A stretch of DNA of 64,000 nucleotides from a virus (IMGVR_UViG_3300042401_001180); one strand, 5' to 3'. Shown: positions 10,634 to 63,650, counted from the stretch's first letter. Numbers and translations: made by a program. The notes: generated by a model not told the origin, from the letters alone.

Positions 10634-12670
10634 TTAATCTTCCCCACCGACGGCATCTTGGACTTTACTGTCCATTTCAGTGGAAATCGCATCAATTGCC
10701 GTTTGTACTAACTTAGCAACTTCAGTTTTAAATTTGTTAGGGTCAACACTTGCAACCATAGATCCAAATATTCCGCCTTCTCCAAATTGATTTTTATAAT
10801 CTTCTAACGCCTTTTTTGAAATGATTTCACTTAATTCGTCAGATCTGTTTTCTTTAAATGCTCTCTCGATAACTTGCGGATCCAATTCATTAAACGCTGT
10901 TAAAATCATTTCATGTTCTTGTTGTTTATCCTTAACCGTATCTGCAATTTTTTGTCCTAATTGATTTTTTACGTCACTAATAAAATCTTTTCCAGAATCT
11001 TTCATAATTTCTAAAAAGTTTTCTTTAACTAATTTTCTATCGTAACCCTTTGAAATTAATTCCCTACTTTCACTTAAAAGATTCTTTTTTAAATGTCTTC
11101 TATTAGATGATTCCAAAACAAATAAAAGTCTTTTTTTAATAATATTCGATTCTTTTTTTAATAATGATTTTTTTTCTGTCTGTTCAGATATTACTTTTCT
11201 TATTGTTTGTCCTATATTCATATCTCTATTTTCCTTATAAATATCTCTTTGTTGCTGAAGTGTAAACCTAAGTTCAAAAATATCTAAATTTGGTGGTACG
11301 TTAGTTAGTTTATTAATTAGTTTTCTCATATTTTCTGAGTAACTATCTTTGTATTTCATAAAACACCACTGTACTTGATTTCTGTTCTCATCTATTACCT
11401 CATTACCACCTAACTCAGATATGGTGGCTTCTTTTCTTATAATGGATACCAAATCTTTATAATAACTTTTAGTTAGTCTTCTACACTCACCAATTTTAAT
11501 TTCTTTTGGTGGTTTTGGTTCTTTAACTTTTGGTACCTTAATGGGTACCAAGTTCCACGAATAAGTATCCTCTTTCCCATATTTAATGGTTCCATATCCC
11601 GCCATTGGTTTATATCCATCTTTTCTAATATCAAAGAAGAGTCTTACTTTTTTAACCGGATCATTTTCATCGTTAAATAACTCAAAATTACCTGTAGTAA
11701 TTTTTAAATTAGTTTCACCATTTTGGTTTGTTTCTAAGGATTGGAAAAGTTCTTGTCTATCTTTATCTTTATAAACATCTATTTTGACATTTGGTAATAT
11801 CTTATCGTTAGTATCAAATGTTGATAATTTAGCAGATATTTTAGGGACTAAAAGTTCTGTTTTAAATATATTACTATTTAAATGTTTTGGGCTTTTTACT
11901 GGTATTCCACTTTCACTGTCTGTCGGTGTAACAGTAATGTTACCCTCTTCTTTTGAAGATACAGTATTATATGATCCATTATTTAAACAGAAATTTATTT
12001 TTTGTTTAGTTTCAATATATCCTTTTATGTTAGTAACAACGATTAACTCTTTTTGCTCCTCACATGACTTACCCTGACTATAAAAATACCCATGTTCTTT
12101 ATTTTCTGGATACATTATTGTTTCACCTTTTTTAACTTGGTAATCAAAACCATTAAACATTAAGGTACTTCTACCCGTTTCAGAGGTGTATGTACCTATA
12201 AGTTTCTTTTTGTTATTGTATAAAGAATAGGATACGTTTGGTATATCTTTACCATCACTACCAACAAATATGAAATCTAAAACAGTTAATTTAGTGGCTG
12301 TTGCGTCAATACTTTGTAAATTATTAACTTTAGCGGATAATAAAATTTTAAAATCTAAAATGTCCTTATTGACTAAATTTATGTTATCACTAAAAGCAAG
12401 ATAGTTTTGTGTTTTTGCGTCTCCATATATCACATACTCACCTGAACTTAAACCACCAAATTTAAAATTACCATCGGCATCCGTTTTTACCATGCCCTTG
12501 GTTGCGTTTGACAAAGTTAGTGTGACTTTAGCATCAAAAATTGGTTCATTACTAGTGATGTCCAAAACTTTACCTCCAATAGATAATCCGGCAACCTCAT
12601 TTAATACTTTATGAAGGTTTAATATTTTTTCCCTTTCGGATTCCGATATGTTAATTTTTTTAATCATCAA
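10634..12670 (-). CDS. Carboxypeptidase-regulatory-like (beta-sandwich) domain protein with leader and internal leader-like segments
   Basis: I.G.V.D....PI..A.V.L......TD.DG.F.F..L..G.Y motif; N-terminus ISESEREKILNLH..LNE; internal MNIGQTIRKVISEQ. Confidence 0.7.
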   Translation of the reverse strand: MMIKKINISESEREKILNLHKVLNEVAGLSIGGKVLDITSNEPIFDAKVTLTLSNATKGMVKTDADGNFKFGGLSSGEYVIYGDAKTQNYLAFSDNINLVNKDILDFKILLSAKVNNLQSIDATATKLTVLDFIFVGSDGKDIPNVSYSLYNNKKKLIGTYTSETGRSTLMFNGFDYQVKKGETIMYPENKEHGYFYSQGKSCEEQKELIVVTNIKGYIETKQKINFCLNNGSYNTVSSKEEGNITVTPTDSESGIPVKSPKHLNSNIFKTELLVPKISAKLSTFDTNDKILPNVKIDVYKDKDRQELFQSLETNQNGETNLKITTGNFELFNDENDPVKKVRLFFDIRKDGYKPMAGYGTIKYGKEDTYSWNLVPIKVPKVKEPKPPKEIKIGECRRLTKSYYKDLVSIIRKEATISELGGNEVIDENRNQVQWCFMKYKDSYSENMRKLINKLTNVPPNLDIFELRFTLQQQRDIYKENRDMNIGQTIRKVISEQTEKKSLLKKESNIIKKRLLFVLESSNRRHLKKNLLSESRELISKGYDRKLVKENFLEIMKDSGKDFISDVKNQLGQKIADTVKDKQQEHEMILTAFNELDPQVIERAFKENRSDELSEIISKKALEDYKNQFGEGGIFGSMVASVDPNKFKTEVAKLVQTAIDAISTEMDSKVQDAVGGED

Positions 12671-18460: not shown

Positions 18461-19493
18461 ATAAATCTGATTGTTTTATATTTTTCATATAATCTCCTCC
18501 GGTATTAGGGATGTAATATTTACTTAGTTCATTATATTTAACCCCACCTTTTGGTAATCTATCAAATTTTTTATTAAACTCATAGGAATAGAATATTTTA
18601 CCGTTATATGATTTCGCTCCGTCTATTGTTCCTGTTTTAGTATAATTCGTTATTTCATTACTAATAGAGTCTATGAAATCTTTTTGTTTTTTATTTATAA
18701 CCATACCATATGGAAGATATATTATTATACCTTTTTTTAATCCAGAATCAAAATTCTTTTTAGTTGATGCTTTAAAAACACACCCGCTATTTTTAAGATA
18801 ATCCCCAACTAAAATAAGTAGATCAATAATATCTGTAGTATTTTCGGCGTATAAATAAAATTTCCACCCACTATAATTTGGTTGTTGTGTTGATAAAAAT
18901 ACGTAGTCGGTTTCATCTATTGCGTGTTCGTTATAGATGTTCGCCATTTCAGTCATTTCGTAGTCAACCCATTGATTTTTAACCCTACTTTCGTACTCAC
19001 CTAAAATTATATTTTCAACATTTTTAAAATCTTTATTTAAAAAACTAATTAAAGCGTATGTAAATTCTTTCACACACGAAGGGTATTCATATTTAGTAAT
19101 CCCTTCTCTTGTCTTCATTTCTTCAACAAACAAATTTAATTCTAAATTATATTCATTTAATAGGACTTTTTTATACTTATCCGAAATATATATGTTGTCC
19201 ATAATGGTGTTTAACGAGCTTAGGTTTTTAAATTCAGCAACTTTAATTAAAACTTTATATTCTTCTTCGGTTAAATATTCTGAGTTAATTAACTCCTCTA
19301 ACGTTTTATTAGTACCCTCTAAAAGTTTTAAAATATCAGAAGAATCTGAGTTATCAAAAATAGTATTAACGACGTTTATATTTTCTTCTTCTTTATTGTC
19401 AACAATAGGTTCGTCCTGTTCAATTATTAATGTAGGTAAACCCATTAATTTACGATAACTATTAATTTCCTTTAAAACTTTTTTTTCAACCAT
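18450..19493 (-). CDS. Hypothetical protein with leader (LKEINSYRKLMGL)
   Basis: 347 aa ORF in operon; SGWKFYL motif in C-terminal half. Confidence 0.75.
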   Translation of the reverse strand: MVEKKVLKEINSYRKLMGLPTLIIEQDEPIVDNKEEENINVVNTIFDNSDSSDILKLLEGTNKTLEELINSEYLTEEEYKVLIKVAEFKNLSSLNTIMDNIYISDKYKKVLLNEYNLELNLFVEEMKTREGITKYEYPSCVKEFTYALISFLNKDFKNVENIILGEYESRVKNQWVDYEMTEMANIYNEHAIDETDYVFLSTQQPNYSGWKFYLYAENTTDIIDLLILVGDYLKNSGCVFKASTKKNFDSGLKKGIIIYLPYGMVINKKQKDFIDSISNEITNYTKTGTIDGAKSYNGKIFYSYEFNKKFDRLPKGGVKYNELSKYYIPNTGGDYMKNIKQSDLFDT

Positions 19494-19894
19494 TATTTAT
19501 AATTTTTACCTGTTGGACCAAAAGTTCTTCCCGATGACCATTTTTCTCCTGATTTACCCAACATATTACCAGGACCTCTAGTTGTTTTATCCTCTCTTTT
19601 GGCACTTGTTATTGGGTTACCTGGACCTCTCGCAGCTCCCGATTCCCAAGGAGTGATACTTGCTCCTGTATCGGATTTTGTATCTGTTGTAGTATCTGTG
19701 GGAGCATCTTCCTCATCCAATTCACCCTCAGACATACCATCAACCGCATCATTATCACCATCATCAGTAGATGGACCTTTTTGTTTAATATCTTGATCAC
19801 TTCCAGTCTTAGATAAATTAATGTCAGTATCTAATTGATCTTCCGAAATCATTAATGATAGTATCCTTCTTATATTTTGTTCTAATAGATTCAT
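19493..19894 (-). CDS. Acidic/low-complexity protein with repeated W.SG..RGP.N motifs and leader
   Basis: MNLLEQNIRRILSLMISE; PWESGAARGPGN, TRGPGN, KWSSGRTFGP. Confidence 0.75.
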   Translation of the reverse strand: MNLLEQNIRRILSLMISEDQLDTDINLSKTGSDQDIKQKGPSTDDGDNDAVDGMSEGELDEEDAPTDTTTDTKSDTGASITPWESGAARGPGNPITSAKREDKTTRGPGNMLGKSGEKWSSGRTFGPTGKNYK

Positions 19895-20316: not shown

Positions 20317-21942
20317 TTAACTTTCTAATGACGGGTCGTTTTTAATTATGCCAACTACCTTTGCGTTACTGTCTGCCCAATCAGTACCATTAAAACTATT
20401 GTTTCTTGATTCAACAGCAACGTCAACAAGTTCATCACCCGTTTTACCCGCACTTACCGCATTATTAATGTCATCAGCAAAGTCTTGGAAGTATCCAGGA
20501 CCATTCCAACACGCATATGCAAAATGAAATAACAATCTTTTACTTGACTCAACTTCTTTTTTTGATTCTGAACTAAAATATCTTGAATTTTTATCATAAG
20601 ATGATTTCATTAATGCTGCCGCTCTTAATTTAAGATCCTCTCTAAGTGATCCACCACCGTAATTGTATTTCCAAGTTTTACAAAACTCTACCATACTACC
20701 TGCGTTTTCTTTTTCGTCATCAATAACTCCAAAAAATTCTCTACCTGCAGAATCATTATCCCATCCACCTGCACGTCTATCAATACCAAACATAGTCTCA
20801 CCTGAATTGTCATACATAGACTCATATGGGTGATTAACACATTTTTTATTTGCCGGTGTAAGTCTATCGTTATTCCAATAACCCCCTTCAAATTTATCAA
20901 TAATTTTATCAGTAAAAGATTTCCAAACACTATCAACAGAACCTGTGAATTTTCTTATTTCTTTTTTTACCTTATCTACAGAATCAACACTTATATACTT
21001 ACTTAAATCTTCCTCATCAAAACTTTTTATTTTTAAATCATAAAACAATTCTTCTAAGGTATCGTTGTCACAAACACCCGTTTCAGGTAACCCTCTCATA
21101 CTTTGGTAGTATATTACCGTCTCTTCTGTTTCTAAATCGTACTTACCGTTTACCTCAATGTCGTCGTTAGTTATAAAATTTAATGCTATTTGTATTTGTT
21201 CTATATCTAATTTATGTGTTTGGTTTGTTCTTGTGTCATATTGATTTCCTGATTTATATATGTCCTCAAATCTCTCCAAAAACTCATATATGGTATCAAA
21301 ATCCGTTTCATCGTCTCCAGGTATAATTTCATTTTTAGAGTTAACAAACGGAGCCCCTTGTAAATCTTGATTTATTGGTGTGTTAATATCTAAATCAGTA
21401 ACATCATCTAAAATTGATTTTGCAATTTCTGTTTTTATATTATTAATTTTTTCTTTTGAAATACCCCCACCATAATCGACAGAATTATAAGTACCAACAA
21501 CTTTAACGTTATTTTTATCAAATACGTTATAAAAATTACCAATCTCTAATTCTAAATTTTTTATCACCTGTTCTTCTTCTTCTGAATAAAAGTACGACTC
21601 ATCAATGATTGCTCTTATAATGTTAAGTCTTGATTTAGGAAAAACTCTACGAATTTCTTTACATAACATATTTATGTCTCCCGTATTTTTAAATTTATCA
21701 TCAGTACCAATAGAAAAGAATACGTGATCAACACTTAAATCGTTTTCCATACCACTTAATCGATTAATTAAATCTCCGATTAATAAAAACTTATCACTTA
21801 ACTCTTTAATGATAGTTAAGTCATCGTCATATAAAAAATATATTAACTCATCACCAAACATGATTGTTTTTACAGGTGAAAATTCTTCTTTTAGATTTAC
21901 AAATCTTTTAAACGATCTTATTTCATTTAATAAATTATCCAT
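20317..21942 (-). CDS. Multidomain muramidase-like protein: peptidoglycan-binding domain plus lysozyme-like (GH108-type) C-terminus, with leader
   Basis: IQIAL......I.V.G.Y..ETEE.V..YQ...GL..TG.CD..T (PG-binding); IIDKFEGGY...GETMFGID (GH108-like catalytic EGG); MDNLLNEIRSFK. Confidence 0.7.
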   Translation of the reverse strand: MDNLLNEIRSFKRFVNLKEEFSPVKTIMFGDELIYFLYDDDLTIIKELSDKFLLIGDLINRLSGMENDLSVDHVFFSIGTDDKFKNTGDINMLCKEIRRVFPKSRLNIIRAIIDESYFYSEEEEQVIKNLELEIGNFYNVFDKNNVKVVGTYNSVDYGGGISKEKINNIKTEIAKSILDDVTDLDINTPINQDLQGAPFVNSKNEIIPGDDETDFDTIYEFLERFEDIYKSGNQYDTRTNQTHKLDIEQIQIALNFITNDDIEVNGKYDLETEETVIYYQSMRGLPETGVCDNDTLEELFYDLKIKSFDEEDLSKYISVDSVDKVKKEIRKFTGSVDSVWKSFTDKIIDKFEGGYWNNDRLTPANKKCVNHPYESMYDNSGETMFGIDRRAGGWDNDSAGREFFGVIDDEKENAGSMVEFCKTWKYNYGGGSLREDLKLRAAALMKSSYDKNSRYFSSESKKEVESSKRLLFHFAYACWNGPGYFQDFADDINNAVSAGKTGDELVDVAVESRNNSFNGTDWADSNAKVVGIIKNDPSLES

Positions 21943-24965: not shown

Positions 24966-24971
24966 AGTTAT

Positions 24972-25665: not shown

Positions 25666-26295
25666 ATGTATAAACTAAAACTATTAAATATACTTAAAGA
25701 GGAGGTTACCGAACAAGGTTATGGTCGTTACTTTAAAGATTGGAAAACCTCTGACGGTAAGACTGTCGGAGATACTCGTGGGTTTGATTTTACTACCAAC
25801 AAACCTTTTGATAAGGACTATAAAAATCCTGAGACGGAGGTGTTATCTAGTGATGTTGAAGATACCGAAGAAAATGTTTACATTTTAGGTAAAAAAATGT
25901 CCATAGATAAGAACGGACCACAAAACCACCAATCAAGGGCTCTTGGTAATTGGCAATCAGACAACGCAACAGACATATTTAGTTCTCCAGGAACAACCGT
26001 TCATTCAGTAACAAAAGGAACGGTTAAAAAAATAGGGGGAAACCAAAACGATCACAATGGTAAAATATATGGGGCGAATGTAACAGTATCAGGTACTGAC
26101 GGATATCCTGATATATTTTACACACATATGCAAAATATAAAAGTAACAAAAGGACAAGTGGTTGGTGTTGGTACCCCAATAGGTGAAATATCAAAATGGG
26201 AGGATAACCCGTCAGGGTCTCACGTACATGTGGGGTTACCTTACGGTAAAAAATTATCAGATTTAATAGATTTAAATACGGGTAAATCAGTTTAA
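25666..26295 (+). CDS. M23-family metallopeptidase with leader
   Basis: H.......D I.....T.V..V..G.V, YTHM..I.V..GQ.V..G..IG, HVHVG; MYKLKLLNILKEE. Confidence 0.85.
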   Translation: MYKLKLLNILKEEVTEQGYGRYFKDWKTSDGKTVGDTRGFDFTTNKPFDKDYKNPETEVLSSDVEDTEENVYILGKKMSIDKNGPQNHQSRALGNWQSDNATDIFSSPGTTVHSVTKGTVKKIGGNQNDHNGKIYGANVTVSGTDGYPDIFYTHMQNIKVTKGQVVGVGTPIGEISKWEDNPSGSHVHVGLPYGKKLSDLIDLNTGKSV

Positions 26296-27676: not shown

Positions 27677-27688
27677 TATTTATAAATA
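27677..27688. promoter_or_regulatory. Palindromic TATTTATAAATA serving divergent genes (representative of the window-wide TATTTAT upstream motif)
   Basis: same palindrome at 5198-5209, 10502-10513, 55707-55718; TATTTAT(A) lies a few nt to a few tens of nt upstream of most operon-first genes. Confidence 0.65.
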
Positions 27689-28314
27689 TGTCTGTACTAC
27701 AAGAAATAAAAAGAATTAAAAATTTAATGTTGATTAATGAAGGCAAATCAAAAGAAAATGATATACCTGAAGATAATCTTTTTAATAGTTTTAAACTTTC
27801 TGAGTTTAAAAAATTACCTCCGCCTGAAGATGATAGTGAAGAAACCAAAAAAGAGTTAGACTATTTAAAATCTATAGATATGGATAAAAGGTTTGTTCAA
27901 GAAAAAGACGATATATTAGGTAACTTTACTAAGTTTTTAGATGATAAAGGTGTTAGTTATGATAAAGATTTACTAAATAATATTAAATCTGACGCAGTTG
28001 CGGTAATACAAACACTAAAAAAACACTTTAAAAGACCTAGACCGTTTAAGTTAAATGATAGATTTAAGGATCCGTCTATGAAATCGACAAGGGGGTACTC
28101 ATATCCATCAGGACACTCAACCCAATCCAACCTATTATGTTTAGTTTTAAGTAAATTTTACCCTAAATATGAAAAGGACTTTAAAAAGATTGTAAAAGAT
28201 ATTGTATATTCTAGACAAATGGCTAAAGCACACTACCCATCGGACATAAAAATGGGTAAAAAGTTGGCTAAATCTATGTTTGAGTACTTAAAAGATAAGG
28301 ATTTAATCCATTAA
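27688..28314 (+). CDS. PAP2 / acid-phosphatase superfamily protein with leader
   Basis: K..F.RPRP, YPSGHS, SR....HYPSD; MSVLQEIKRIKNLMLINE. Confidence 0.85.
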   Translation: MSVLQEIKRIKNLMLINEGKSKENDIPEDNLFNSFKLSEFKKLPPPEDDSEETKKELDYLKSIDMDKRFVQEKDDILGNFTKFLDDKGVSYDKDLLNNIKSDAVAVIQTLKKHFKRPRPFKLNDRFKDPSMKSTRGYSYPSGHSTQSNLLCLVLSKFYPKYEKDFKKIVKDIVYSRQMAKAHYPSDIKMGKKLAKSMFEYLKDKDLIH

Positions 28315-28875
28315 ATTAGGTATTACTTCTTCTTGGAAGAAATATTTTACCTGATGTATATCATTTCCTAACTCATTTTGTAATCTTTTCTCTTTTGATT
28401 CATCGTATCCGGCAAATTCATCGTCAGAATCATATGTTTGGAATGAGTCTTGATCCAAAACAAAGTCAATTTCTGTTAAATTACCCTTCTTATCAGTAAC
28501 GATTAACCCAATCCACTCTTCACCTTGCCATTTTACACTACCATAATATATGTTTTCTTGAGGTAAGTTGTCTTCATAGTCATATCTGAATGAAAATTCA
28601 CTACCATCCTTTAAATAAGTGGTATATTCATCCCCTACTTTGCCGTTAAAATCGTCGTTTTTACCCTCAAAATCAGTGTTTTTAGGGGTGTTTTGGGGGG
28701 TAAACTCACCCTTTTTACCTGAATTTAACCACTCTGAGTACTGATTTAGGGTACTTTTTTCGTTATTTTCAAGGTTTTCGTACCCAATTTCGTTCATTTT
28801 ATCTAAAATTTGGTCGATTTCAGTGGTATTTTCCACTAAAAAACGGTATTGTGACTCTGTAATTATGATTTTCAT
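28303..28875 (-). CDS. Leader-bearing hypothetical protein (MKIIITESQY)
   Basis: 190 aa; IDQILDKM...GYENL segment. Confidence 0.8.
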   Translation of the reverse strand: MKIIITESQYRFLVENTTEIDQILDKMNEIGYENLENNEKSTLNQYSEWLNSGKKGEFTPQNTPKNTDFEGKNDDFNGKVGDEYTTYLKDGSEFSFRYDYEDNLPQENIYYGSVKWQGEEWIGLIVTDKKGNLTEIDFVLDQDSFQTYDSDDEFAGYDESKEKRLQNELGNDIHQVKYFFQEEVIPNLMD

Positions 28876-34840: not shown

Positions 34841-35275
34841 CTAAACCGTGTCTTTAATCTCTACATTCATAATGTTATCGTATAGCTCATCTGACATTGT
34901 AATATTTTTTAAATTAACTCTTGGGTAATCCCCATCCGTAAAATATTTTAAAAGTTCATCAACACATCTTGTTATCCCATAAGTAAAGGTATATTCTTTT
35001 TTAAAAAAAACGGTTATTAATCTGTCCTTATCAAAATCCCTACCCATTATTTTAAAGTAAGGTTTGTATGGTTCCTGAATATCTAAAATTTCCAAATCAA
35101 CTTCTGCATACATATAGTACTCACCAACAGACATCATTCTTCTTTCCCCAACAATTTTAAATCTATATTCAATATCATACTCAGGACCATCATATGATAA
35201 AAATGGTATAGAACACGTAAATGTTTCATTAGACAAATACCTATTAACTTGTTCTCTTTCTTTTTCGTTAAACAT
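34841..35275 (-). CDS. Hypothetical protein
   Basis: 144 aa ORF. Confidence 0.7.
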   Translation of the reverse strand: MFNEKEREQVNRYLSNETFTCSIPFLSYDGPEYDIEYRFKIVGERRMMSVGEYYMYAEVDLEILDIQEPYKPYFKIMGRDFDKDRLITVFFKKEYTFTYGITRCVDELLKYFTDGDYPRVNLKNITMSDELYDNIMNVEIKDTV

Positions 35276-35412
35276 TATATTTCAAAGTATAATAAATCTT
35301 TTATTCCGTTTGTTTGGTGTTTCTGATATCCTCTTTTTTTCATCATCCCTTGTAACGCATCATTTTCCATCATTAATGACTTAATACGTGTTATTTCCTC
35401 GTTGAGGTTCAT
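35275..35412 (-). CDS. 45-aa leader-bearing peptide missing from the ORF track
   Basis: MNLNEEITRIKSLMMENDALQGMMKKRGYQKHQTNGIKDLLYFEI; TATTTATA at 35417-35424; TAATG overlap with the next gene. Confidence 0.6.
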   Translation of the reverse strand: MNLNEEITRIKSLMMENDALQGMMKKRGYQKHQTNGIKDLLYFEI

Positions 35413-35705: not shown

Positions 35706-36458
35706 CTATAAAAAGTAACTTCTTAGAACTTTTCTAATAGATTCATTAACTTTAATAATTAATTCACTTTTACCTGATTTAGATTTAGGAAAACTTAAAT
35801 CATTTCCATCCCAAACAACGTTAGTCGTATATGCACTACCAGAAGAGGGGCTAACAAGTGAATGTACGTCATTTGAACTATCAAGAGTTAAATAAACATT
35901 ATTTATTTTGTCATCACACTTTGATTTTAATCTTAACCAAAATGAATTAACTGTTCCCGTTTTAATATTATAATAAACACCAATTTTATAATTTTTTCCT
36001 TTATCTATTTCAAAACAAGGAACAGTACCATCTAAAAGGGATTGAAAAATATCATCTTCATCTGATAATAAATCATTTGGGGTTTTAAGTGAAACATTAT
36101 TGAATTTACTAAATAAATCTTTCCAATCATTACCCACTAATTTTTGGTCCTTAATGGTTAGGTACCCACTGTGATAAATATGAACATTAAAACCATCAAT
36201 TTCATTGTACATTTGTAAAAAATAATCAACACCATTAGGTATTTTTTTTGTTGTGTTGTAATTTTTAAAAACGGAATCAGAATTTATTAATTTATATTTG
36301 CCATCATCTAAAATACCTATAGAACTGTTTTTATCTAATATTAATATATCTCCCTCAGAATTTGGTACGCCTGTAGGTATATACTCAGTTTCTTCTTTTA
36401 AAACACGTTTAACAATTCGTTTTAAATCTGATTCTGTAAGTCTTATTACTTTTTTCAT
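35706..36458 (-). CDS. Leader-bearing hypothetical protein (MKKVIRLTESDLKRIVKRVLKEE)
   Basis: 250 aa; C-terminus ends with leader-like VNESIRKVLR. Confidence 0.8.
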   Translation of the reverse strand: MKKVIRLTESDLKRIVKRVLKEETEYIPTGVPNSEGDILILDKNSSIGILDDGKYKLINSDSVFKNYNTTKKIPNGVDYFLQMYNEIDGFNVHIYHSGYLTIKDQKLVGNDWKDLFSKFNNVSLKTPNDLLSDEDDIFQSLLDGTVPCFEIDKGKNYKIGVYYNIKTGTVNSFWLRLKSKCDDKINNVYLTLDSSNDVHSLVSPSSGSAYTTNVVWDGNDLSFPKSKSGKSELIIKVNESIRKVLRSYFL

Positions 36459-37752: not shown

Positions 37753-38877
37753 TTAATATTCTTCTTCAAAATACATATCGATAATATCAGAAAATGTTAA
37801 ACCCATAATTCCAATTCCAAGTTTTTCAATAATTTCATTATCAACCATTTCAAATCCTTCTTCGTCGATAAACCATTCAAACTCACCTCTATCTTGATAT
37901 AAATATTTTACACCATCAAGTTCAAAAAGATACATTGGACCCCAAAAATTTAAATATTTTTTAATCATATCACTTCCAATACCATTATCAAAACTCATTG
38001 GCACATCGTAAATGGATGTTATTTGTTGGATTCTGTCAGAAAAATCAACACCAAAGGAATCTTTTAAAAATTTTTTATTTTTATCTGTAGATTCACTTAA
38101 CAACACATCATTGTCTGTTGAGTCAACGATTCTATCTACTTTCAATCCGGAATTTTCTTCAAACCAATCTTTAAATACTGAATACCAAGAGTCATTAAAA
38201 TACTCATTTAGTTTTTTACAAACCCATGGCATAATTTCCAATGTCCCGTCATCGTAATAAATATACGCTTCAGAATCATCTATATGAAATGTTGTTGATC
38301 CGAACACTCTAACCTCCTCATCATAAAAATCAAATAACTTTGGACCCCAATCATAATCGGGATAAAAGTCATCTTTCAAAAAACTATAAATTAGGGTTTC
38401 CAAATTAGATTTTTCATTTGCAGATTCGTTAATATTTTTTTTCTTTTTTACGTTATATCTTTTTGTCCTATTTGTACTATACACATATTCATCACCTTCA
38501 TCATCAATTCTTCTTTCATCTTCAAACCCATAATCATATTGAACACAATCACATTTAATTCCCGTATGATTATAAACATAATCAACCAAAACTTTAGAAA
38601 ATAATTTATGTCTATAATGTGGAAAATAACGTTCCATGTTTTCTGTAAATGAAGTATCCAAAGTTAAATCATATATACAACCCTTATTTTTTGGGCCTGT
38701 AACCCATATTGCCATAACCTCAACACCGGATTTATCCAATATGGAATGAGTATGTGGACTAGGTTCTCCATTCCTTTTTTTTTCTTTTACTGTCAGTAAT
38801 GATATCTTACCAAGCAAAACATCCAAAAGATTTGTAATTAAAGATTTATATTGTGATTTTGTAATGATTATTTTCAT
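37753..38877 (-). CDS. Leader-bearing three-module polyprotein-like protein
   Basis: MKIIITKSQY; internal NINE|S and LLSE|S junctions. Confidence 0.8.
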   Translation of the reverse strand: MKIIITKSQYKSLITNLLDVLLGKISLLTVKEKKRNGEPSPHTHSILDKSGVEVMAIWVTGPKNKGCIYDLTLDTSFTENMERYFPHYRHKLFSKVLVDYVYNHTGIKCDCVQYDYGFEDERRIDDEGDEYVYSTNRTKRYNVKKKKNINESANEKSNLETLIYSFLKDDFYPDYDWGPKLFDFYDEEVRVFGSTTFHIDDSEAYIYYDDGTLEIMPWVCKKLNEYFNDSWYSVFKDWFEENSGLKVDRIVDSTDNDVLLSESTDKNKKFLKDSFGVDFSDRIQQITSIYDVPMSFDNGIGSDMIKKYLNFWGPMYLFELDGVKYLYQDRGEFEWFIDEEGFEMVDNEIIEKLGIGIMGLTFSDIIDMYFEEEY

Positions 38878-41773: not shown

Positions 41774-42103
41774 TTATGATTCAACAAAAGAAACCTCAAC
41801 ACCAAACCTTTTTTCAAAACAATCTTTAACAATATCGTGTATTATTTCTTTATCCAAAGGAATTAATCTCTGAAGTCGCTTCATATAATCTTTAGAGATC
41901 CATAATCTACCATCAAACTTATCATATTCTAATAGTTGTGGTTGTTCATCATCTTCATCATCACCATAATAAGTATAATCCCAAATAATAATATACGATT
42001 CCAAATAGGTTGGTTTACCATCATCAAAAGTATCGTTTACATATTCTGCAATATAATCATACAATATTTGTTTATGTTGTTCTTCTGTTATAATGATTTT
42101 CAT
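41774..42103 (-). CDS. Leader-bearing hypothetical protein (MKIIITEEQH)
   Basis: paralog of 38942-39382. Confidence 0.8.
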   Translation of the reverse strand: MKIIITEEQHKQILYDYIAEYVNDTFDDGKPTYLESYIIIWDYTYYGDDEDDEQPQLLEYDKFDGRLWISKDYMKRLQRLIPLDKEIIHDIVKDCFEKRFGVEVSFVES

Positions 42104-42536: not shown

Positions 42537-42878
42537 TTACTTATTTAAAATATTTTCTAAAAATGGTTTAGCAATATTTGCAAAATAATAATTAACTATA
42601 TCAGAAGGAATATATATAAGTTCATCAATTGCATCAGAAAAAATGGAAGATCCAGAAAATCTAAGTATTCCATCTTCTTTTGTAACAAAAGAAACCGTTC
42701 GTTCATACTCATCACCATTCGGAAAATAAAACCTAAAAACAACATGGTCATAAGCTTTCTCAGCCCCAAATGACCCATAGGTTCTTCCCTGATATCTCAT
42801 GTTATATGTTATATCTTCAGAATCTAAAATCCGTTCAATAAGTTTATCTGTTTGACTTTCTGTAATTAATATTTTCAT
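42537..42878 (-). CDS. Leader-bearing hypothetical protein (MKILITESQT), tandem paralog 2
   Basis: 113 aa; R.YG.....YD.V...F.FP...ER.V.F.T. Confidence 0.8.
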   Translation of the reverse strand: MKILITESQTDKLIERILDSEDITYNMRYQGRTYGSFGAEKAYDHVVFRFYFPNGDEYERTVSFVTKEDGILRFSGSSIFSDAIDELIYIPSDIVNYYFANIAKPFLENILNK

Positions 42879-44403: not shown

Positions 44404-44413
44404 ACAATTAGGC

Positions 44414-44556: not shown

Positions 44557-44604
44557 AATTCTAATATAAATATATGTATTAATTAAAAAAGATAAACAGT
44601 TACG

Positions 44605-45926: not shown

Positions 45927-46289
45927 TTACTTTCTTGGTAGATAATATCTTTTGTAAAAATGATTATAACTATCTATGTGTGAACACCCCCCTTTCATAT
46001 CAAATTGTAGTCCGAAGTAGTTATGGACTTCTTTTCTTATATTTTTTAGTATTTTGTGTAATTTATCTGATTCTACCATTGTAAATGGTTTTTTAAATAA
46101 TGCGGTGATTTCACACGTTTCATTATCATCAATTATATCCACAGCAACACCATAAAAGTTTTCAGGTAGTTCATAATCTTTCAATAACATATTTACAAAA
46201 TCTGTGATTGATTTTTCTAATGGAGTTCTTTTTGGTATGTCTTCCGTTTCCTCCTTTAATACTTTTCTTATGTGTTCTTGTAGGTTCAT
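45927..46289 (-). CDS. Leader-bearing hypothetical protein (MNLQEHIRKVLKEE)
   Basis: 120 aa. Confidence 0.8.
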   Translation of the reverse strand: MNLQEHIRKVLKEETEDIPKRTPLEKSITDFVNMLLKDYELPENFYGVAVDIIDDNETCEITALFKKPFTMVESDKLHKILKNIRKEVHNYFGLQFDMKGGCSHIDSYNHFYKRYYLPRK

Positions 46290-46855
46290 TCTTCTTCAGT
46301 TAAATAATCATCCATTATCTCAATGACTTTAGGTTTTACATTCGGGATGTCATTTATCTCTATATTAAAATTCCATAAGAAATTATCTTCTTGGTCGTAG
46401 ATACCTGTTTCAGGTGAATAATAGACTATGTTGGTGGCGAAGTTATTTATATCGTTTGAAATCGTTACATAATAATCAGACATTGTTCTATCATTCCTAA
46501 ATTCATAATCTAACATCTGACATACATCTTCAAAACTTGATTGATTGTTATCCCATTTGGCTAATAAAAATATTTCCGATGCCGTTGGATTTCCTGTTAT
46601 ACCTATTTTTGGTTTCTTTGGGTTTCTTTGAATTATTACTGCATGTTTACCTTTATGGTAATCTTCCCACTCATAAATATCATCATTAATACACCACTGG
46701 CATTGGTGAGCGTATTTTTGTAATGCTCTATGTGTTAATGGAACGACAACAATTATATTGTCATCTTTATATAGTTCCACTCTTTCACTTCTTGGAACTC
46801 TAACTTCATTAAGTTCTTCCCTTAATATTTTTCTTATATGTTCTTGTAGGTTCAT
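46286..46855 (-). CDS. Leader-bearing hypothetical protein (MNLQEHIRKILREE)
   Basis: Y.DD..IVVVPLTH.A...Y....QWCI domain. Confidence 0.8.
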   Translation of the reverse strand: MNLQEHIRKILREELNEVRVPRSERVELYKDDNIIVVVPLTHRALQKYAHQCQWCINDDIYEWEDYHKGKHAVIIQRNPKKPKIGITGNPTASEIFLLAKWDNNQSSFEDVCQMLDYEFRNDRTMSDYYVTISNDINNFATNIVYYSPETGIYDQEDNFLWNFNIEINDIPNVKPKVIEIMDDYLTEEE

Positions 46856-49458: not shown

Positions 49459-49872
49459 TTATACTGTATAACAACCATAATCCCAATTACGTACTTGACC
49501 TGGTATAGTTATACCAATATTATCAAATGAAGAACTTCTATGTATATTAACGTATGTATCGGCATTGTTTGCCATATCTATACCACCTAATAAATCTTTA
49601 TAGTAATCTGATGATTTTGTTTTAATAATCTTTGGATCAGGTAAATTAATTACCTCCATATATATTTTAAACATCTTCTCAGGTAAGTAAGTTCTTAATT
49701 TTGATTCAATTGTTAATTTACTGGTTAGTTTAACTAAATGAAAAAAACTACTAAGGGTATCTGATTTTTTTGCATCAAAAAGTTTTGTGATGTGATAAAC
49801 ATTATCTTTTACTTCTACCTTGATTCCGTCGGTATCTAATATGTCTATTATATATTCTATTCTATGATCCAT
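49459..49872 (-). CDS. Hypothetical protein with host-type promoter
   Basis: 137 aa; TATATTTG at 49884-49877. Confidence 0.7.
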   Translation of the reverse strand: MDHRIEYIIDILDTDGIKVEVKDNVYHITKLFDAKKSDTLSSFFHLVKLTSKLTIESKLRTYLPEKMFKIYMEVINLPDPKIIKTKSSDYYKDLLGGIDMANNADTYVNIHRSSSFDNIGITIPGQVRNWDYGCYTV

Positions 49873-49910
49873 TCTACAAATATAAGAATAAAATATCAGT
49901 AAAAAAGAAT

Positions 49911-51415: not shown

Positions 51416-53344
51416 TTACTTACTAATTGGATCCCATTCGCAATTTGGTTTGCCGTATGATCCAACATACAAATTATCTATTGGTATATATTGTTTGATG
51501 GTGTTTTTAACCTCCATTCTTAATTTTGAAATGTGACTCTGCATAGCAGGAACATAAATAAACTTTTCATTCATTTCTTCTGTTCCAATAACAAGATATG
51601 CCGTATACATATCATCCTCATCGTCGTATGAAACATTTATATCACAGACACCCTCCTCATCTTTAAATGGTTCAACTAATTCTTCAATTAGACTTAAATA
51701 TTTTGGTTCAGTTTCTTTTGATTCATTTATAACATTTCCTTCATTATCGTATTTTAGTTTAATGGCATCCAAGCGAAAATCTGAATCAGTGTTATGCTGT
51801 TCATGGTGCCAATACGGACGAAGTTTAATGCCTGTATATTCATATATTTCATGTTGTATTTGTTCGGCAAAATAAGTCTCTTCATTACCAAAATCTTTAT
51901 CGTTATCAAAATAAACTATTATCATTGGTTTATTTTCATATTTTTTAATTTTAATAAAACTAACCTCATCAAAAAGCGTATGTATTAAATCTTTAACCAT
52001 TTTAAGTTTATTATTTTCAGATTTGTCAATTGATTCCATTAATCCCCAATCCTTACCTGTGCCTTCACGCTTTAATGTTATTGCATCTACGGGTATGTTT
52101 TCAAATGTCACTATATGTTTTGATCTTGATTCGTAGTGTTTATCTTTGTACCACTTAACATCAGGTATCATTTCAGTATTAATTTCCCATACATCGTCAT
52201 CGTATGTAGAATCAAACGACGCTCTTTTATTTGTTGAGTTAGTAGCAAAGATTGCTGGTATACATTTTTCTCCGTAACCTGCATATATTTTATAACATTC
52301 TCCAGCCCTTACTTTTAACCCTTCATTTAATATTTTATCTCTAACCTTTGGATTAGATTTATGTATAACAATTTTGTTTGGCGTTATTTCTTTTCCTGCA
52401 GGACTATAATTTTCTTTTGACTCTCTAAGATATATGTTTTTCTTTCCACAATCTTTAACGGTTTTGTGATATACATCTACCCCCTCATTTGTGTAATTAT
52501 AAATCACGTCCCAAACCTCATCCATTACATCATCATACATTCTTTGAACCCCTTGAGTTTGTGGCCAAAGTTTTGTACCAGGTCCACCAATAAATATTAT
52601 TGTAACACTTATAAACTTAAATGGAGTATTGCCCAAAGTGTCAAACCTTTCGTGTGGTTCTTTCACTTCAAACCCACAAATAACGTGCTCATACTCAGGT
52701 AATACTATAGTATTTAATACTTTTTCAATAATTTCTTTTTGTGATTCTTTTTTAGATTCGTTCAAAAATTCAGGTTCATCCTCACAACTATCAACAAACC
52801 ACGGCGTGTATATATAAACACGTATTCCCATTGATCGTATTGTATTATCTAAAAACTCTAACTCTTTTTGCGTGTCGTCAATATTGAAGTCTAAATTTGC
52901 ATATTTAGAACGTATTTCATATTCCCCGTCCATCTTGTTATATTCTACCCAAATATCACATAAACCATCCCAACTAACTTGTTTTATTATGGTTCTTATA
53001 ACATTTAGATTTCTTTCTATTTCTTTGGGTGTTTCTTTGATATTTTCATTAAGTTCTTCTTCGTATTCCTCAGTATCAATATAAAAATCGGGTTGGTTAT
53101 CGTGTTCTCTATCCTCATGCCAAGGAACAACATCTAAACCCGTATATTGACTAATCATATCACATATTTCGGTGGGTATTAACATTTGTCGGTTATCACG
53201 ATTAGTATAATATATCATAACCTCATTTCTTTTGGTAACGTATTCTATAAAACTAACATTATCAAACATAGTGTATATAAGATTCTTAACTAACTCAAAT
53301 TTGTTAGTTTCTTCCTTTAATATGTGTTTAATAAGTCCTCTCAT
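51416..53344 (-). CDS. Leader-bearing six-module polyprotein-like protein including an ADP-ribosyltransferase-fold-like module
   Basis: MRGLIKHILKEE; junctions LNE, LNE, LRE, LME, INE; modules 1 and 5 are paralogous. Confidence 0.8.
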   Translation of the reverse strand: MRGLIKHILKEETNKFELVKNLIYTMFDNVSFIEYVTKRNEVMIYYTNRDNRQMLIPTEICDMISQYTGLDVVPWHEDREHDNQPDFYIDTEEYEEELNENIKETPKEIERNLNVIRTIIKQVSWDGLCDIWVEYNKMDGEYEIRSKYANLDFNIDDTQKELEFLDNTIRSMGIRVYIYTPWFVDSCEDEPEFLNESKKESQKEIIEKVLNTIVLPEYEHVICGFEVKEPHERFDTLGNTPFKFISVTIIFIGGPGTKLWPQTQGVQRMYDDVMDEVWDVIYNYTNEGVDVYHKTVKDCGKKNIYLRESKENYSPAGKEITPNKIVIHKSNPKVRDKILNEGLKVRAGECYKIYAGYGEKCIPAIFATNSTNKRASFDSTYDDDVWEINTEMIPDVKWYKDKHYESRSKHIVTFENIPVDAITLKREGTGKDWGLMESIDKSENNKLKMVKDLIHTLFDEVSFIKIKKYENKPMIIVYFDNDKDFGNEETYFAEQIQHEIYEYTGIKLRPYWHHEQHNTDSDFRLDAIKLKYDNEGNVINESKETEPKYLSLIEELVEPFKDEEGVCDINVSYDDEDDMYTAYLVIGTEEMNEKFIYVPAMQSHISKLRMEVKNTIKQYIPIDNLYVGSYGKPNCEWDPISK

Positions 53345-55740: not shown

Positions 55741-56175
55741 TCATTCAATATTTCCAATTACTTTTTCTCCATTTGCGTAGATTCTGTGACCCATTAAATT
55801 ATATACATCACGCAACCATATCTTTATGATGTCTTTAATTTCTGATAAATCAAGACTAAACCCATCTTTCAAAAATGACCAAATTTGTTCATAATTAACG
55901 TAAACATATTCAGTTTTTCCGTCGTAAACCATCAAATTATTTCCTTTTTTATATCTAAATAATGTCCAATCTTCATCTTCCACACTCTGAACAACATCCA
56001 AGTCATTAAATAAATGTAAAAATTCTACTGGATTGTTGTTAAACCCTAATTTTACTAAATTTTCTGTACCTCCAACAAGTTCTGCGGTTTCTTCAAAACC
56101 AAACGCTTTAACTTGTTGTTTAAGATTCTGTTTAAGACTTTCTTCTTTTAATATTTTTTTGATTAGTTTTTCCAT
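55741..56175 (-). CDS. Leader-bearing hypothetical protein (MEKLIKKILKEE)
   Basis: YD.K...VY.NY..IWS.L...F.L...EI..II..WL..VY.L domain. Confidence 0.8.
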   Translation of the reverse strand: MEKLIKKILKEESLKQNLKQQVKAFGFEETAELVGGTENLVKLGFNNNPVEFLHLFNDLDVVQSVEDEDWTLFRYKKGNNLMVYDGKTEYVYVNYEQIWSFLKDGFSLDLSEIKDIIKIWLRDVYNLMGHRIYANGEKVIGNIE

Positions 56176-60417: not shown

Positions 60418-60989
60418 TATCTTACCATTAAATCAACGTGTATTGGTATTAACCTATCTTTTAATAGGTTTGAAAAGAAACCATAGGTTTCATCAGTTAA
60501 AAATTGTACAAGATCACCTGATTCATATTCTAATAAACTATACTGTTCAAATATATCCATATTTGGTACCATATCCATCATATCTGTTTCTTCATTATGG
60601 ACATACCCATCAACAGTACCACCAACAACCCTACAAATAATATCAACCATTCCTCCTTGTCCTTTTAATCCGTATGAATACACCTCATCAACAAATATAA
60701 CCATATCTAAGTTGGCGTCTCCTTTAAAATGAAATTCTCCGTGTTCTATTTTATCCCTTACATCTTGAAGTATTTTTTCATATCCTCCGTTATATTCATA
60801 CCAAATAGGTCGAATCTTCTGATAATCCTCTCTACTATCTTTTCTTATGTCTGTAACGTGATATAGTATATCATCTAAAAAAGGTTCTTGTCCTTGTTTT
60901 TTTTGATTATCCCAAAATGAAAATAAAAAATCTCTAAGGTTATCCTCAGTTAAACTTTTATATTGTGCCTCGGTTATAATTATTTTCAT
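60417..60989 (-). CDS. Leader-bearing hypothetical protein (MKIIITEAQY)
   Basis: 190 aa. Confidence 0.8.
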   Translation of the reverse strand: MKIIITEAQYKSLTEDNLRDFLFSFWDNQKKQGQEPFLDDILYHVTDIRKDSREDYQKIRPIWYEYNGGYEKILQDVRDKIEHGEFHFKGDANLDMVIFVDEVYSYGLKGQGGMVDIICRVVGGTVDGYVHNEETDMMDMVPNMDIFEQYSLLEYESGDLVQFLTDETYGFFSNLLKDRLIPIHVDLMVR

Positions 60990-62215
60990 TTAATTCTTAA
61001 TTTTTGTCCCGCACTGATACTATCAGATTTTAATCCATTTAATTTTTTTATACTGTCAACGGTTATCGTTTTGTCGTATTTAGCAGCAATTTTAGATAAA
61101 GTATCACCAGATTTAACGGTGTATGTTATTAAAGGTTTAGTTATTTTTTCAAGATTACTTATCATTGAATCCATCCAATTAGATGGTTTTGGTGTGGTTG
61201 GTTTAGGTTTTGACTCTGTTGTTTTAGGTTTTGGTGTGGTTCCACTTTTTAACTCATCATCATATTTTAAAAGAGCACTTTGATTTGATTTCATCCTTTG
61301 AGCCACTGATCCCTTCATTCTTGGATCATCAGCCTTTGAGAAATCAATATCCCAACCTTCTAAATACTTTTCAGCCGCTAAGTTCCATTTACCTAAATTA
61401 ATATTTTTTACCCACTCATATCCACTTTTAGCTTCTCCCCTATAAACTGAATTTGTAAGAGCTCTTTGAACATATAGCGGGTATGTGTCGTATTTTGGGA
61501 ATAGTTTTTTAGCCTTTCCTTCCTCGTTTGAAATATCCTTACTTAATAGTTCCTCAGCCTTTTTATTAGATATAGCATTACCTGGTTTTGCATCTGTACC
61601 TGTATGTCCCCAACCAATCGTTAAAACACCACCATATGGTGATTTACTCTTTATAAATGTTTTAGGGTTTTTTGGGTCTTTATCATCAAACGTGTAGTGG
61701 CTACCCACAGAATTTGTAACTGTCGATTCAAAACTTTTAATAGTATCTCTAAACACTTTATCATCCACTAAACTTTCGTTTAATATTTTGTATTGTCTTT
61801 CTGTTATTATTATTTTCATATTTGATTCTTCAATTTTATCTTTTTTCTTTCCTTTCTCAGGGATTTTGTGTTCCTTTGGCACAATGTCAATTCCTATTTT
61901 TTTACCGAATATAATTAAAAATGGAGTAATGGGTATTGGAATCGGGATTATTGAAATGACAATCATTAGTAAGTTTTTAATAACGTCACCTGATTGTCCT
62001 TGAATAAACTCAATATCTTTTTTGTCTAAGTCAAAATCTCTATTTTTTACATATGACTTTACCGCATAGGTTAATATTCGGGCTAAAGCCTTAGTCTCCT
62101 CTATTTCAGACTTAGCTCTATTTTTAATATCTTTAAACTTGGATAATATTTTTTTTAATATCCCTTCTTCGCTTTTATCTTCGGATATTACTAAATCCTC
62201 CTTTTTAAATTCCAT
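60986..62215 (-). CDS. Fusion: helical N-module + internal leader + phage lysozyme (GH24-like) + LysM
   Basis: internal MKIIITERQYKILNE at 61819; I..FE...LTIGWGH; YTVKSGDTLSKIA.KY.....I..LNGL....I..GQKL.I. Confidence 0.8.
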   Translation of the reverse strand: MEFKKEDLVISEDKSEEGILKKILSKFKDIKNRAKSEIEETKALARILTYAVKSYVKNRDFDLDKKDIEFIQGQSGDVIKNLLMIVISIIPIPIPITPFLIIFGKKIGIDIVPKEHKIPEKGKKKDKIEESNMKIIITERQYKILNESLVDDKVFRDTIKSFESTVTNSVGSHYTFDDKDPKNPKTFIKSKSPYGGVLTIGWGHTGTDAKPGNAISNKKAEELLSKDISNEEGKAKKLFPKYDTYPLYVQRALTNSVYRGEAKSGYEWVKNINLGKWNLAAEKYLEGWDIDFSKADDPRMKGSVAQRMKSNQSALLKYDDELKSGTTPKPKTTESKPKPTTPKPSNWMDSMISNLEKITKPLITYTVKSGDTLSKIAAKYDKTITVDSIKKLNGLKSDSISAGQKLRIK

Positions 62216-62237
62216 AATAATAAATACCATAGAAAAC

Positions 62238-62266
62238 AAAAAAGTCAGGACTTAATCCTGACTTTT
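62238..62266 (-). terminator. Intrinsic terminator
   Basis: aaaagtcagga-cttaa-tcctgactttt perfect stem. Confidence 0.8.
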
Positions 62267-62284
62267 AATATATAGTAGATTGGT

Positions 62285-62597: not shown

Positions 62598-63650
62598 TTA
62601 ATCAAATGAATCCTCAGAAGATTTTTTATTAAAGTGAAAATTATAATAAGGTGACATACGTTCATCATTATATAATCCAAACATTTCTAAAATACCTAAC
62701 AACTCCACCGATATTTCGTGTCTGTACATTTGTGTTATTTTGTATTCTTTTCCATCTTTTTTATTAACATCAATGAATAGTTGTAATATTGGTCTTCTAA
62801 TTCCTTCGTTTTGTTTCAACAAATAATCACGCAAACTAAAATCTAAAGGTATTCCCTCTCCGTATGTTTCTGAAAGTTCTGACATCGCGTTTAATGCAAC
62901 TTTTATTCCTTTAATGTCGTAACCAATCTCTGCTATTTTTTCTTCAGATTCTTTATTTTCATCCAATTTAAATTTCATATGATATCGTTTAAAATCAAAA
63001 CTATAGTCATATAAGCCATCATTATCTATTCCCATATATTTTAAATAATCAAAAAGGAGATCAATTATATCCAACTCATTATCCTCATAAATCACAATTG
63101 AGTTTCCATCAGTATTTACAATATCTAATGTTACGTAAATAACCTTAGTATTATTTATATCAAAGTTTTTATGAATATTTAATTCATAATTTATAACAAT
63201 ATCATTATCTTTTAACTGCGGTTGGTACGGTTTAATATATTTTTTTATTTCAGGTGTTGCATAATCAATTAAAATTGATGTTATATTTTTTATTTCTTCA
63301 TTAGATATATCATTTTTTTTTGATTCTTTTAGATTCTTTTTTTTACCCTGACAATACGCTCTTTGAGAAAATCCTTTTGAGTTACTACAGTTAATACTTT
63401 TTTTATATTTTTCTGTCCACTTTTCTGTTATTATTTCTTCTTCTTCTTTTTTATAGTTCTTCCAAAAGTTTTCAAGTTCTTCGTAGTTGTATTTTTTTTT
63501 ATGTGAATCATAACCACACATATGACATAGATAGGGGAATTTATCTTTTGGTTCTATTTTCCAAGAATGTTTGCACTTGTCACAATTAAACTTCTTTGAG
63601 TCATTTTCTCTTATTGTTTCTAATTGTTCCTTTGTGACTAATATTTTCAT
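62598..63650 (-). CDS. Leader-bearing multi-module protein (zinc ribbon + KW..KYKKSINC module + two further domains)
   Basis: MKILVTKEQLETIRE; CDKC..W.......LCHMCG; ITE|KWTEKYKKSINCSNSKGFSQRAYC; LKE|S; LDE|N. Confidence 0.75.
   Translation of the reverse strand: MKILVTKEQLETIRENDSKKFNCDKCKHSWKIEPKDKFPYLCHMCGYDSHKKKYNYEELENFWKNYKKEEEEIITEKWTEKYKKSINCSNSKGFSQRAYCQGKKKNLKESKKNDISNEEIKNITSILIDYATPEIKKYIKPYQPQLKDNDIVINYELNIHKNFDINNTKVIYVTLDIVNTDGNSIVIYEDNELDIIDLLFDYLKYMGIDNDGLYDYSFDFKRYHMKFKLDENKESEEKIAEIGYDIKGIKVALNAMSELSETYGEGIPLDFSLRDYLLKQNEGIRRPILQLFIDVNKKDGKEYKITQMYRHEISVELLGILEMFGLYNDERMSPYYNFHFNKKSSEDSFD

Follow-up and report, generated by a model that had tools for sequence, protein, structure and literature searches.

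Thirty-eight open reading frames (ORFs) in a 64,000-nucleotide stretch of viral DNA, IMGVR_UViG_3300042401_001180 (hereafter the window, by which the whole stretch is meant), begin with one of four classes of short N-terminal leader. The source is an uncultured T4-related phage of ~300 kb. The interpretation favoured here, which is judged about evenly balanced between right and wrong, is that the leaders are modular, interchangeable propeptides with a role comparable to that of capsid-targeting sequences (CTS) in phage T4. It is favoured because the leader is a swappable tag that ends in aliphatic-x-Glu (h-x-E) with a near-invariant Glu, because a Peptidase_S77 protease occurs in the clade and because enzymes of cytoplasmic type are untagged; the position of leader genes in structural modules, the scarcity of membrane segments and virion-delivered precedents for the types of cargo point the same way. 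On this interpretation the system is a greatly expanded variant of the T4 capsid-targeting principle, the principle itself being known from T4.

The leader ORFs were found by regular expressions and subsequently by leader hidden Markov models (HMMs) run over all six frames. Class A (11 genes) has the consensus MKIIITEsQYkxLxE, class B (14 genes) MxxLIKKILKEE or MNLQExIRKILKEE, class C (10 genes) ..EIxRIKxLMGL...hxE and class D (3 genes) (MKKxI)RLTESDLxRIVKRVIxE, and a Met stands at the model start in all 38. The four classes are linked by hybrids, e.g. MNLQEQISRIQSMMGLNE and RIVKRVLKEE, and a strand-TES(Q/D)-helix plan is common to A and D. Comparison of the 22-residue N-termini of 84 proteins gave 99 pairs scoring at least 35 in ungapped BLOSUM62, against 0-2 such pairs per set in five control sets of random internal segments. 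A first-pass annotation had counted about 36 leader genes, and all the starts it gave hold true leader-bearing starts; its total was slightly low, by one class A and one class C gene. The class A start at 61819, absent from that annotation, is the true start of a lysozyme + LysM gene in ORF 60986-62239. The scan with leader HMMs that it had proposed was run on the window and its relatives and recovered the leaders, with N-terminal matches for 38/38 in the window and 305/312 in 1.01 Mb of related loci.

The window has a GC content of 30% and densely packed minus-strand genes, and megablast of its first 20 kb found no near match among GenBank phages. An exact 31-mer of the window recurs in two contigs of the IMG/VR database, G001 (95 kb) and G002 (61 kb), which are syntenic with positions 4-39 kb at 70-77% nucleotide identity. 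Freshwater samples are the source of the leader-bearing contigs. A complete relative, G005, has 296,330 bp and 30.3% GC, with patches 93-97% identical to the window, and CheckV completeness values give a genome size of ~300 kb for the clade. The head module of G001 follows the T4 order: large terminase, portal, small proteins, a Peptidase_S77 protease (85 bits), followed by a 511-residue candidate scaffold protein and, after it, the major capsid protein. Among cultured phages the nearest capsid proteins are those of Microcystis phage Mel-JY01 (42.8% identity), Flavobacterium phage vB_FspM_immuto (41.6%) and Rhodothermus phage RM378.

Codons for Ile, Ser, Thr and Glu vary synonymously inside the leaders (e.g. 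ATA/ATT/ATC, TCA/AGT, GAA/GAG) and the DNA upstream differs, so that selection falls on the peptide, and the leaders are conserved as peptide and not as DNA. The first-pass annotation had described the downstream sequences as mostly unrelated, and this held: BLASTP of residues 31 onward joined only two pairs of leader proteins in the window, and phmmer added three further small groups. The 92 cargoes of the window, G001 and G005 fell into 61 phmmer clusters, and with 120 further clade loci 394 cargoes gave 168 clusters, 117 of them singletons. That the leaders have no tag function, being relics of gene duplication or recombination cassettes for gene shuffling, is very unlikely. Some cargo families are true paralogs and T4-type genomes do shuffle genes at conserved intergenic modules, but the bulk of the cargo is unrelated and the class D motif is kept in 7,894 diverged protein clusters (cluster representatives at 50% identity with E <= 1e-3; 952 at E <= 1e-10). 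Homologous recombination at the leaders is disfavoured because there is too little DNA identity, and a cassette acting at the level of DNA was rejected on the synonymous codon variation and the unrelated upstream DNA.

Leaders are exchanged among related cargoes. Mixed leader classes occur in 19 of the 51 multi-member cargo clusters, and a family of 148 residues carries leader A (16 residues), B (12 residues) or D (23 residues) with a single joining point before the first conserved cargo residues. Two leaderless paralogs of this family lie at 49859-50302 and 77055-77453 of G005, which has ~10 tagged copies; the pairing of tagged with leaderless paralogs recalls packaged Alt and unpackaged ModA/ModB of T4. 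Because one cargo family bears different leaders and leaderless paralogs exist, the leader behaves as an exchangeable modular tag, and on sequence the classes seem to be equivalent in function. Ribosomally synthesised and post-translationally modified peptides (RiPPs) follow the same logic of a common leader on many unrelated proteins; the leader would then be the recognition sequence for a modifying enzyme, e.g. of the radical-SAM type. Such a role is extremely unlikely. A radical-SAM maturase was rejected, since PF04055 was below the Pfam cut-off in four complete genomes and G001, the sole match being a sub-threshold one in G006.

Exchange of leaders was also found around a module at 52034-52420, within a class B protein of 642 residues. 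Its AlphaFold2 (AF2) model (predicted local distance difference test, pLDDT, 80.7) gave a Foldseek E value of 9.7e-6 to TkoKptA at probability 1.0, and as modelled the module is KptA/Tpt1-like, resembling NAD-dependent phosphotransferases with the ADP-ribosyltransferase fold. Its invariant residues include H20, S22, G40, C42, Y43 and the run T72-Y73-D74-D75-D76. The 170 homologs found in metagenomes are mostly stand-alone and leader-tagged: among 120 cluster representatives ~65 carry leader A, ~27 B and ~11 C, or the module is internal to long proteins, and aliphatic-x-Glu always stands directly before its first conserved residues.

The first-pass annotation had also stated that most leaders end in (I/L/V)-x-E. 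Such a site lies at residues 7-30 in 49 of 50 leaders, compared with 57 of 119 other N-termini, and its density is 5.9% in leaders against 1.6-2.3% elsewhere, 3.3-fold above that in their own cargo; there is some circularity in this enrichment test, since classes B and D were defined with the help of the motif. Class A ends in L-x-E15 and class B in L-K-E11. In the class D alignment M1, L7, T8, E9, D11, R14, I15, V16, R18, V19 and E22 are invariant and the sequence is random afterwards. Residues were also counted in 172 class D instances among the best 150 database matches. The last residue is E in 171 instances, K in one and D in none; two residues before it stand I (158), L (7), M (4) or V (3), and after it Q (106), N (25), S (11), E (9), G (6), D (6) or others (9). 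The ending is the motif of T4 gp21, (L/I)-x-E. For T4, the ten N-terminal residues of IPIII suffice for packaging; within the CTS, residues 4 and 7 have a part in targeting and residues 8 and 10 in processing, Glu is required at residue 10, where Asp blocks processing, and Alt and gp24 shed short N-terminal propeptides (PMC9026906). Alt, with MELITE, and gp24, with MAKINELLRE|S, bear a loose resemblance to classes A and B.

An uncleaved reading of the same features would make the leader a structural strand-plus-helix for oligomerisation or for binding one surface (DNA, membrane, host factor or virion exterior), with the Glu as a helix or contact residue. It draws on the AF2 model of the most expanded cargo family (144-148 residues; pLDDT 85.5), in which the leader begins a helix of residues 2-25 and so forms the first turns of a longer helix, on the good conservation of internal leader copies and on the heptad-like amphipathic pattern of class D. 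A search of the PDB with the 144-residue model by Foldseek gave nothing below E 0.4. This alternative is quite unlikely: leaderless paralogs and the exchange of three or four leaders on one cargo argue against a role in the fold, conservation stops abruptly at h-x-E in every class, and a purely structural position would tolerate Asp more often than the complete lack of replacement of Glu by Asp indicates. When residues 1-40 of class D proteins (11 rows) were co-folded with the prohead protease of G005 (5-row alignment), the score was 0.00, which bears neither way.

The leader motif is not strictly an N-terminal device. Although 144 of the 172 class D instances are N-terminal and the motif begins at residue 1 in nearly all database matches, many of the top matches have a second, internal copy. 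In P0007, P0013 and P0015 the internal copy is preceded by another h-x-E-N-K, polyprotein-like, and fused multi-module proteins with tandem or internal leaders lacking Met occur in G005 (95462-97048, 97421-98713 and 100424-101947) and in P0001, P0013, P0021 and P0022. In the 642-residue protein of the window LNE|N, LNE|S, LRE|S, LME|S and INE|S recur between modules. Internal copies that follow h-x-E are compatible with polyprotein processing.

These internal copies and h-x-E junctions suit a processing signal better than an address, and they bring in the possibility of a processing or docking tag that is independent of packaging. A common partner (Peptidase_S77 outside the head, another protease, an assembly factor or a hub) would then activate, time or gather many effectors in the infected cell, and the proteins would never enter the virion. 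From the modularity and the invariant Glu one can read recognition and possibly cleavage, but no location; the leader genes belong to extended arrays of small genes, as do the host-takeover genes of T4; and acidic cargo and envelope-acting enzymes suit the DNA-associated contents of a head poorly. Such a tag is nevertheless somewhat unlikely, since T4-type prohead proteases are zymogens made in the core with no known free cytoplasmic substrates (PMC9026906), some leader genes lie within head modules and no other candidate partner was found.

A T4 gp21-type protease, which the first-pass annotation had expected to accompany the leaders, occurs in relatives of the window's phage. Peptidase_S77 is present in the syntenic G001 and G002 (85 bits) and in 4/4 near-complete genomes of the clade, these being the class A-bearing records at least 96% complete (n=4). 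A degenerate DNA pattern for MKIIITExQ retrieved more than 120 IMG/VR stretches, and 16 of the 49 records then searched had Peptidase_S77, in agreement with the 15.3 expected from their summed completeness at one gene per genome. The protease gene of G005 lies at L148:7773-8498. The 64-kb window holds no Peptidase_S77 gene. G006 (behind L072), a complete relative of 269 kb, has two, at 31291-31773 and 233494-233940 (103 and 83 bits).

A de novo census of G005 placed ~53 of 379 genes (~14%) in leader clusters. The same annotation had noted that leaders equally frequent on cytoplasmic replication enzymes would speak against it; none of 11 replication, nucleotide-metabolism and other such enzymes of G005 carries one (SSB, RecA, exonuclease, DnaB, NrdA, NrdF, ThyA, two phosphoesterases, thioredoxin and an endolysin-type gene). 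The immuto homolog of this endolysin-type gene adjoins a holin. Also leaderless, in the window, are a UvrC-like nuclease, a glycosyltransferase, a metallophosphoesterase, a DUF932 protein and a thioredoxin. As to position, G005 has one leader gene flanked by portal and protease and a class D lysozyme gene ahead of the terminase gene; in both G001 and G005 the structural genes that follow the capsid gene include a conserved class B gene, and five class C proteins (133-1083 residues) at 10.6-19.9 kb of the window adjoin tail-type genes.

Domains identified among the cargo are Phage_lysozyme + LysM, Peptidase_M23, PG_binding_1, CarboxypepD_reg, DUF6576 and PAP2, and G005 has a tagged GH108-like + PG-binding protein recognised from sequence motifs only. 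A comparison of 20 leader proteins with PHROGs gave matches for two of them, to lysin or peptidase families only, and no leader-based family came up. Cargo precedent is seen in that the ADP-ribosyltransferase fold recalls Alt of T4 and that the extra wall hydrolases are tagged while the endolysin-type gene is leaderless. Five cargoes act on or bind the envelope without a signal peptide (lysozyme + LysM, M23, PG_binding_1, PAP2 and, by motif only, the GH108-like protein), as would fit a non-classical signal for export or envelope targeting of enzymes acting outside the cytoplasm. The leaders, however, are charged and amphipathic without the hydrophobic core of a signal peptide, the same genomes put Sec- or lipoprotein-type signal peptides on other genes, and the relatives of the KptA-like ADP-ribosyltransferase fold act on nucleic acids, most cargo having no envelope signature; an export role has very little probability. 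Membrane segments are scarce in the cargo (4/92 versus 65/479 other proteins, p = 0.013). Three tandem paralogs on the minus strand of the window, at 23820-25565, have ordinary signal peptides, and the phage therefore exports some proteins by the standard route.

If the leaders do work as CTS-like propeptides, the hydrophobic or amphipathic front of the leader, a short strand (e.g. KIIIT or KIIRL), a TES(Q/D) helix cap and then a helix, would draw the protein into the core of the prohead as it assembles. The T4 gp21-type (Peptidase_S77) prohead protease would then cut at the terminal aliphatic-x-Glu, with predicted cuts after E22 in class D, E15 in class A and E11 or E12 in class B, and the mature cargo would be freed inside the particle and delivered to the next host. 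Multi-module proteins would be cut at their h-x-E junctions into separate modules by the same protease.

A number of observations weigh against this interpretation. The leader helix of the 144-residue cargo runs on to residue 25 in the AF2 model, so that the predicted cut falls inside a helix. The cargo is acidic, with a median isoelectric point of 5.0, whereas the internal proteins of T4 are basic and DNA-binding, and wall hydrolases and PAP2 act in the envelope, whereas the head contents of a myovirus are expected in the cytoplasm. At least 22 internal class D copies without Met were present among the best 150 matches, and a pure N-terminal address needs none. The ~53 tagged genes of 379 are far more than in any packaged cargo set documented to have a common tag. 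No homology to the CTS of T4, MKTYQEFIAE, could be detected. The protease ascribed to the window's own phage is drawn from its relatives, and the co-occurrence shows that tag and protease belong to one clade, not that they co-evolved independently. Core binding, cleavage, presence in the virion and ejection are all steps that we infer. The first-pass annotation had itself proposed capsid targeting, a proposal that gains partial support, and all the computational predictions it listed were borne out; the acidic and envelope-acting cargo and the internal leader copies fit it less well.

The promoter-like motif TATTTAT adds to these points, as it fails to separate leader genes from others. It is enriched 12.8-fold upstream of genes (133/486 genes in the window, G001 and G005) and lies ~11-30 nt upstream of many start codons, e.g. 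before 9309-10502, 19493-19894, 38877, 42103 and 42878; the distance to the ATG is 11-14 nt in many leader genes and 20-27 nt in head genes. This implies a putative phage-wide promoter with very short 5' leaders. The motif is silent on the timing of expression because it is common to structural, replication and leader genes, and it was rejected as a timing marker.

The likeness to T4 lies in a short N-terminal peptide ending in aliphatic-x-Glu on otherwise unrelated, diverse and fast-evolving cargo, and in a homologous Peptidase_S77 protease in the T4-order head module of the relatives. T4 has one CTS of 10 residues and a handful of tagged genes, whereas here there are at least four classes of 12-28 residues and ~50 tagged genes per genome; its cargo is basic and not acidic, internal copies and multi-module proteins are found here, and packaging and cleavage are known for T4 and predicted here. 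T4 gp67, gp68, gp22, Alt and Inh gave no BLASTP match to proteins of the window, G001 or G005, a search that left out the T4 internal protein genes. The jumbo phages phiKZ, 201phi2-1 and SPN3US load dozens of proteins into the head, and their gp175/gp245 cleave the propeptides of head, inner-body and ejection proteins after the Glu of a three-residue motif, at several sites per propeptide (PMC5694885, PMC7411985, PMC10052503). Their motif is S/A/G-x-E in long unshared propeptides, in contrast to I/L/V/M two residues before Glu and a T4-type Peptidase_S77 here. Encapsulin cargo-loading peptides likewise are short and modular and sort unrelated cargo into an HK97-fold shell, but they are usually C-terminal, shell-binding and uncleaved, and have no homology to the leaders. 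Viral polyproteins cut by a virion protease are similar in that a repeated short cut-site motif joins modules, whereas most cargo here is encoded by separate genes and the multi-module minority looks like fused tagged genes.

Searches for the leaders in cultured phages were negative. By tblastn the class D leader had no match at E <= 1 in GenBank phages, and 93 leader proteins had none at 1e-4 in 150 kb of immuto and 37 kb of T4; classes A-D are absent from the N-termini of immuto. Immuto (MW353176; L014/L155/L156), whose host is Flavobacterium sp. LMO8, encodes a T4-type prohead protease and has three shared N-terminal families of its own, some members of which lie in the head module. The first, MENFDLKKFLVENKLT.., has five genes (1803, 103762, 117587, 118588 and 125197), the second, MKKSQLRxIIKE.., four (102250, 102836, 113144 and 123311) and the third, MKKQILSEQFxRMQKLAGIITES.., two (25470 and 111631), its ..LAGIITESQ resembling class A. 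Members of these families adjoin portal, protease and terminase genes. No virion proteome of immuto and no description of an expanded CTS-like system in uncultured phages was found in the open literature. The earlier remark that no characterised phage uses such a tag at this scale thus appears correct for the literature and GenBank phage records searched.

Table 1. Leader-bearing genes of the window, and the module within the 642-residue class B protein
Feature	Position	Strand	Evidence
Class A gene, 190 aa, cargo with DUF6576	28303..28875	-	HMM 34.9 bits; Pfam
Class A gene, 374 aa, cargo clusters with 148-aa family	37753..38877	-	leader HMM; phmmer
Class A gene, 109 aa, cargo homologous to class B genes at 39382 and 57216	41774..42103	-	HMM, BLASTP, phmmer
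Class A gene, 113 aa	42194..42535	-	leader HMM
Class A gene, 113 aa, paralog of 42194-42535	42537..42878	-	BLASTP; leader HMM
Class A gene, 204 aa	58854..59468	-	leader HMM
Class A gene, 131 aa	59468..59863	-	leader HMM
Class A gene, 185 aa	59860..60417	-	leader HMM
Class A gene, 190 aa	60417..60989	-	leader HMM
Class A gene, 277 aa, Phage_lysozyme + LysM	60986..61819	-	leader HMM; Pfam; PHROGs
Class A gene, 350 aa	62598..63650	-	leader HMM
Class B-like gene, 209 aa, Peptidase_M23	25666..26295	+	domain scan; PHROGs; leader HMM
Class B gene, 146 aa	38942..39382	-	leader HMM
Class B gene, 120 aa	45927..46289	-	leader HMM
Class B gene, 189 aa, cargo related to class A gene at 63650	46286..46855	-	phmmer; leader HMM
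Class B gene, 135 aa	46862..47269	-	leader HMM
Class B gene, 124 aa	47994..48368	-	leader HMM
Class B gene, 226 aa	48365..49045	-	leader HMM
Class B leader on 642-aa multi-module protein, hxE-S/N junctions between modules	51416..53344	-	leader HMM
KptA/Tpt1-like ADP-ribosyltransferase-fold module (predicted) within 642-aa protein	52034..52420	-	AF2, Foldseek
Class B gene, 180 aa	53347..53889	-	leader HMM
Class B gene, 159 aa	53889..54368	-	leader HMM
Class B gene, 196 aa	54365..54955	-	leader HMM
Class B gene, 126 aa	55326..55706	-	leader HMM
Class B gene, 144 aa; same cargo with leader A or D in G005	55741..56175	-	leader HMM
Class B gene, 215 aa	56569..57216	-	leader HMM
Class C-like gene, 677 aa, CarboxypepD_reg, adjoins tail/baseplate-type genes	10634..12667	-	leader HMM
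Class C gene, 1083 aa	12660..15911	-	leader HMM
Class C gene, 347 aa	18450..19493	-	leader HMM
B/C hybrid leader gene, 133 aa	19493..19894	-	leader HMM
Class C gene, 541 aa, PG_binding_1	20317..21942	-	leader HMM; domain scan
Class C gene, 208 aa, PAP2 phosphatase domain	27688..28314	+	leader HMM; domain scan
Class C gene, 175 aa	32145..32672	-	leader HMM
Class C leader on 45-aa ORF	35275..35412	-	HMM 17.8 bits; ORF kept out of HMM training
Class C gene, 516 aa	40118..41668	-	leader HMM
B/C hybrid leader gene, 243 aa	47266..47997	-	leader HMM
Class D gene, 92 aa	30873..31151	-	leader HMM
Class D gene, 250 aa, D fused to B-type end	35706..36458	-	leader HMM; alignment
Class D gene, 89 aa	43575..43844	-	leader HMM; alignment

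Between the leader genes listed in Table 1 a region of ~2 kb (43845-45927) is without a convincing ORF, its GC (0.34-0.38) being slightly above that of its flanks. Short patches of it are 75-86% conserved in G005 (103.3-104.3 kb), and it has no tRNA and no Rfam match, the tRNA and Rfam scans of the whole window both being empty. It may represent non-coding RNA or decayed genes.

Taken more broadly, it is a shade less than an even chance that a widespread T4-related lineage of ~300 kb, probably infecting Bacteroidota, pre-loads its particles with ~50 proteins, which are sorted by a set of exchangeable leaders and processed by the head protease in the manner of a polyprotein. The pre-loaded set would include wall hydrolases, an enzyme of the lipid-phosphate phosphatase type, an NAD-dependent enzyme with the ADP-ribosyltransferase fold and many unknowns, and a large part of the 'early' programme would enter the cell as finished protein. 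If this is true, the leaders provide a sequence label for the injected proteins of uncultured giant phages, leader D alone listing thousands of families, and the tagged proteins would be prime candidates for anti-defence and host-takeover functions. T4 packaging would scale from about four proteins to ~1 gene in 7, with swappable tags and fused self-processing cargo, and engineered phage capsids could use the tags as transferable packaging signals. Should the tags serve another purpose, a sorting or processing system that takes in ~14% of phage genes still needs explaining.

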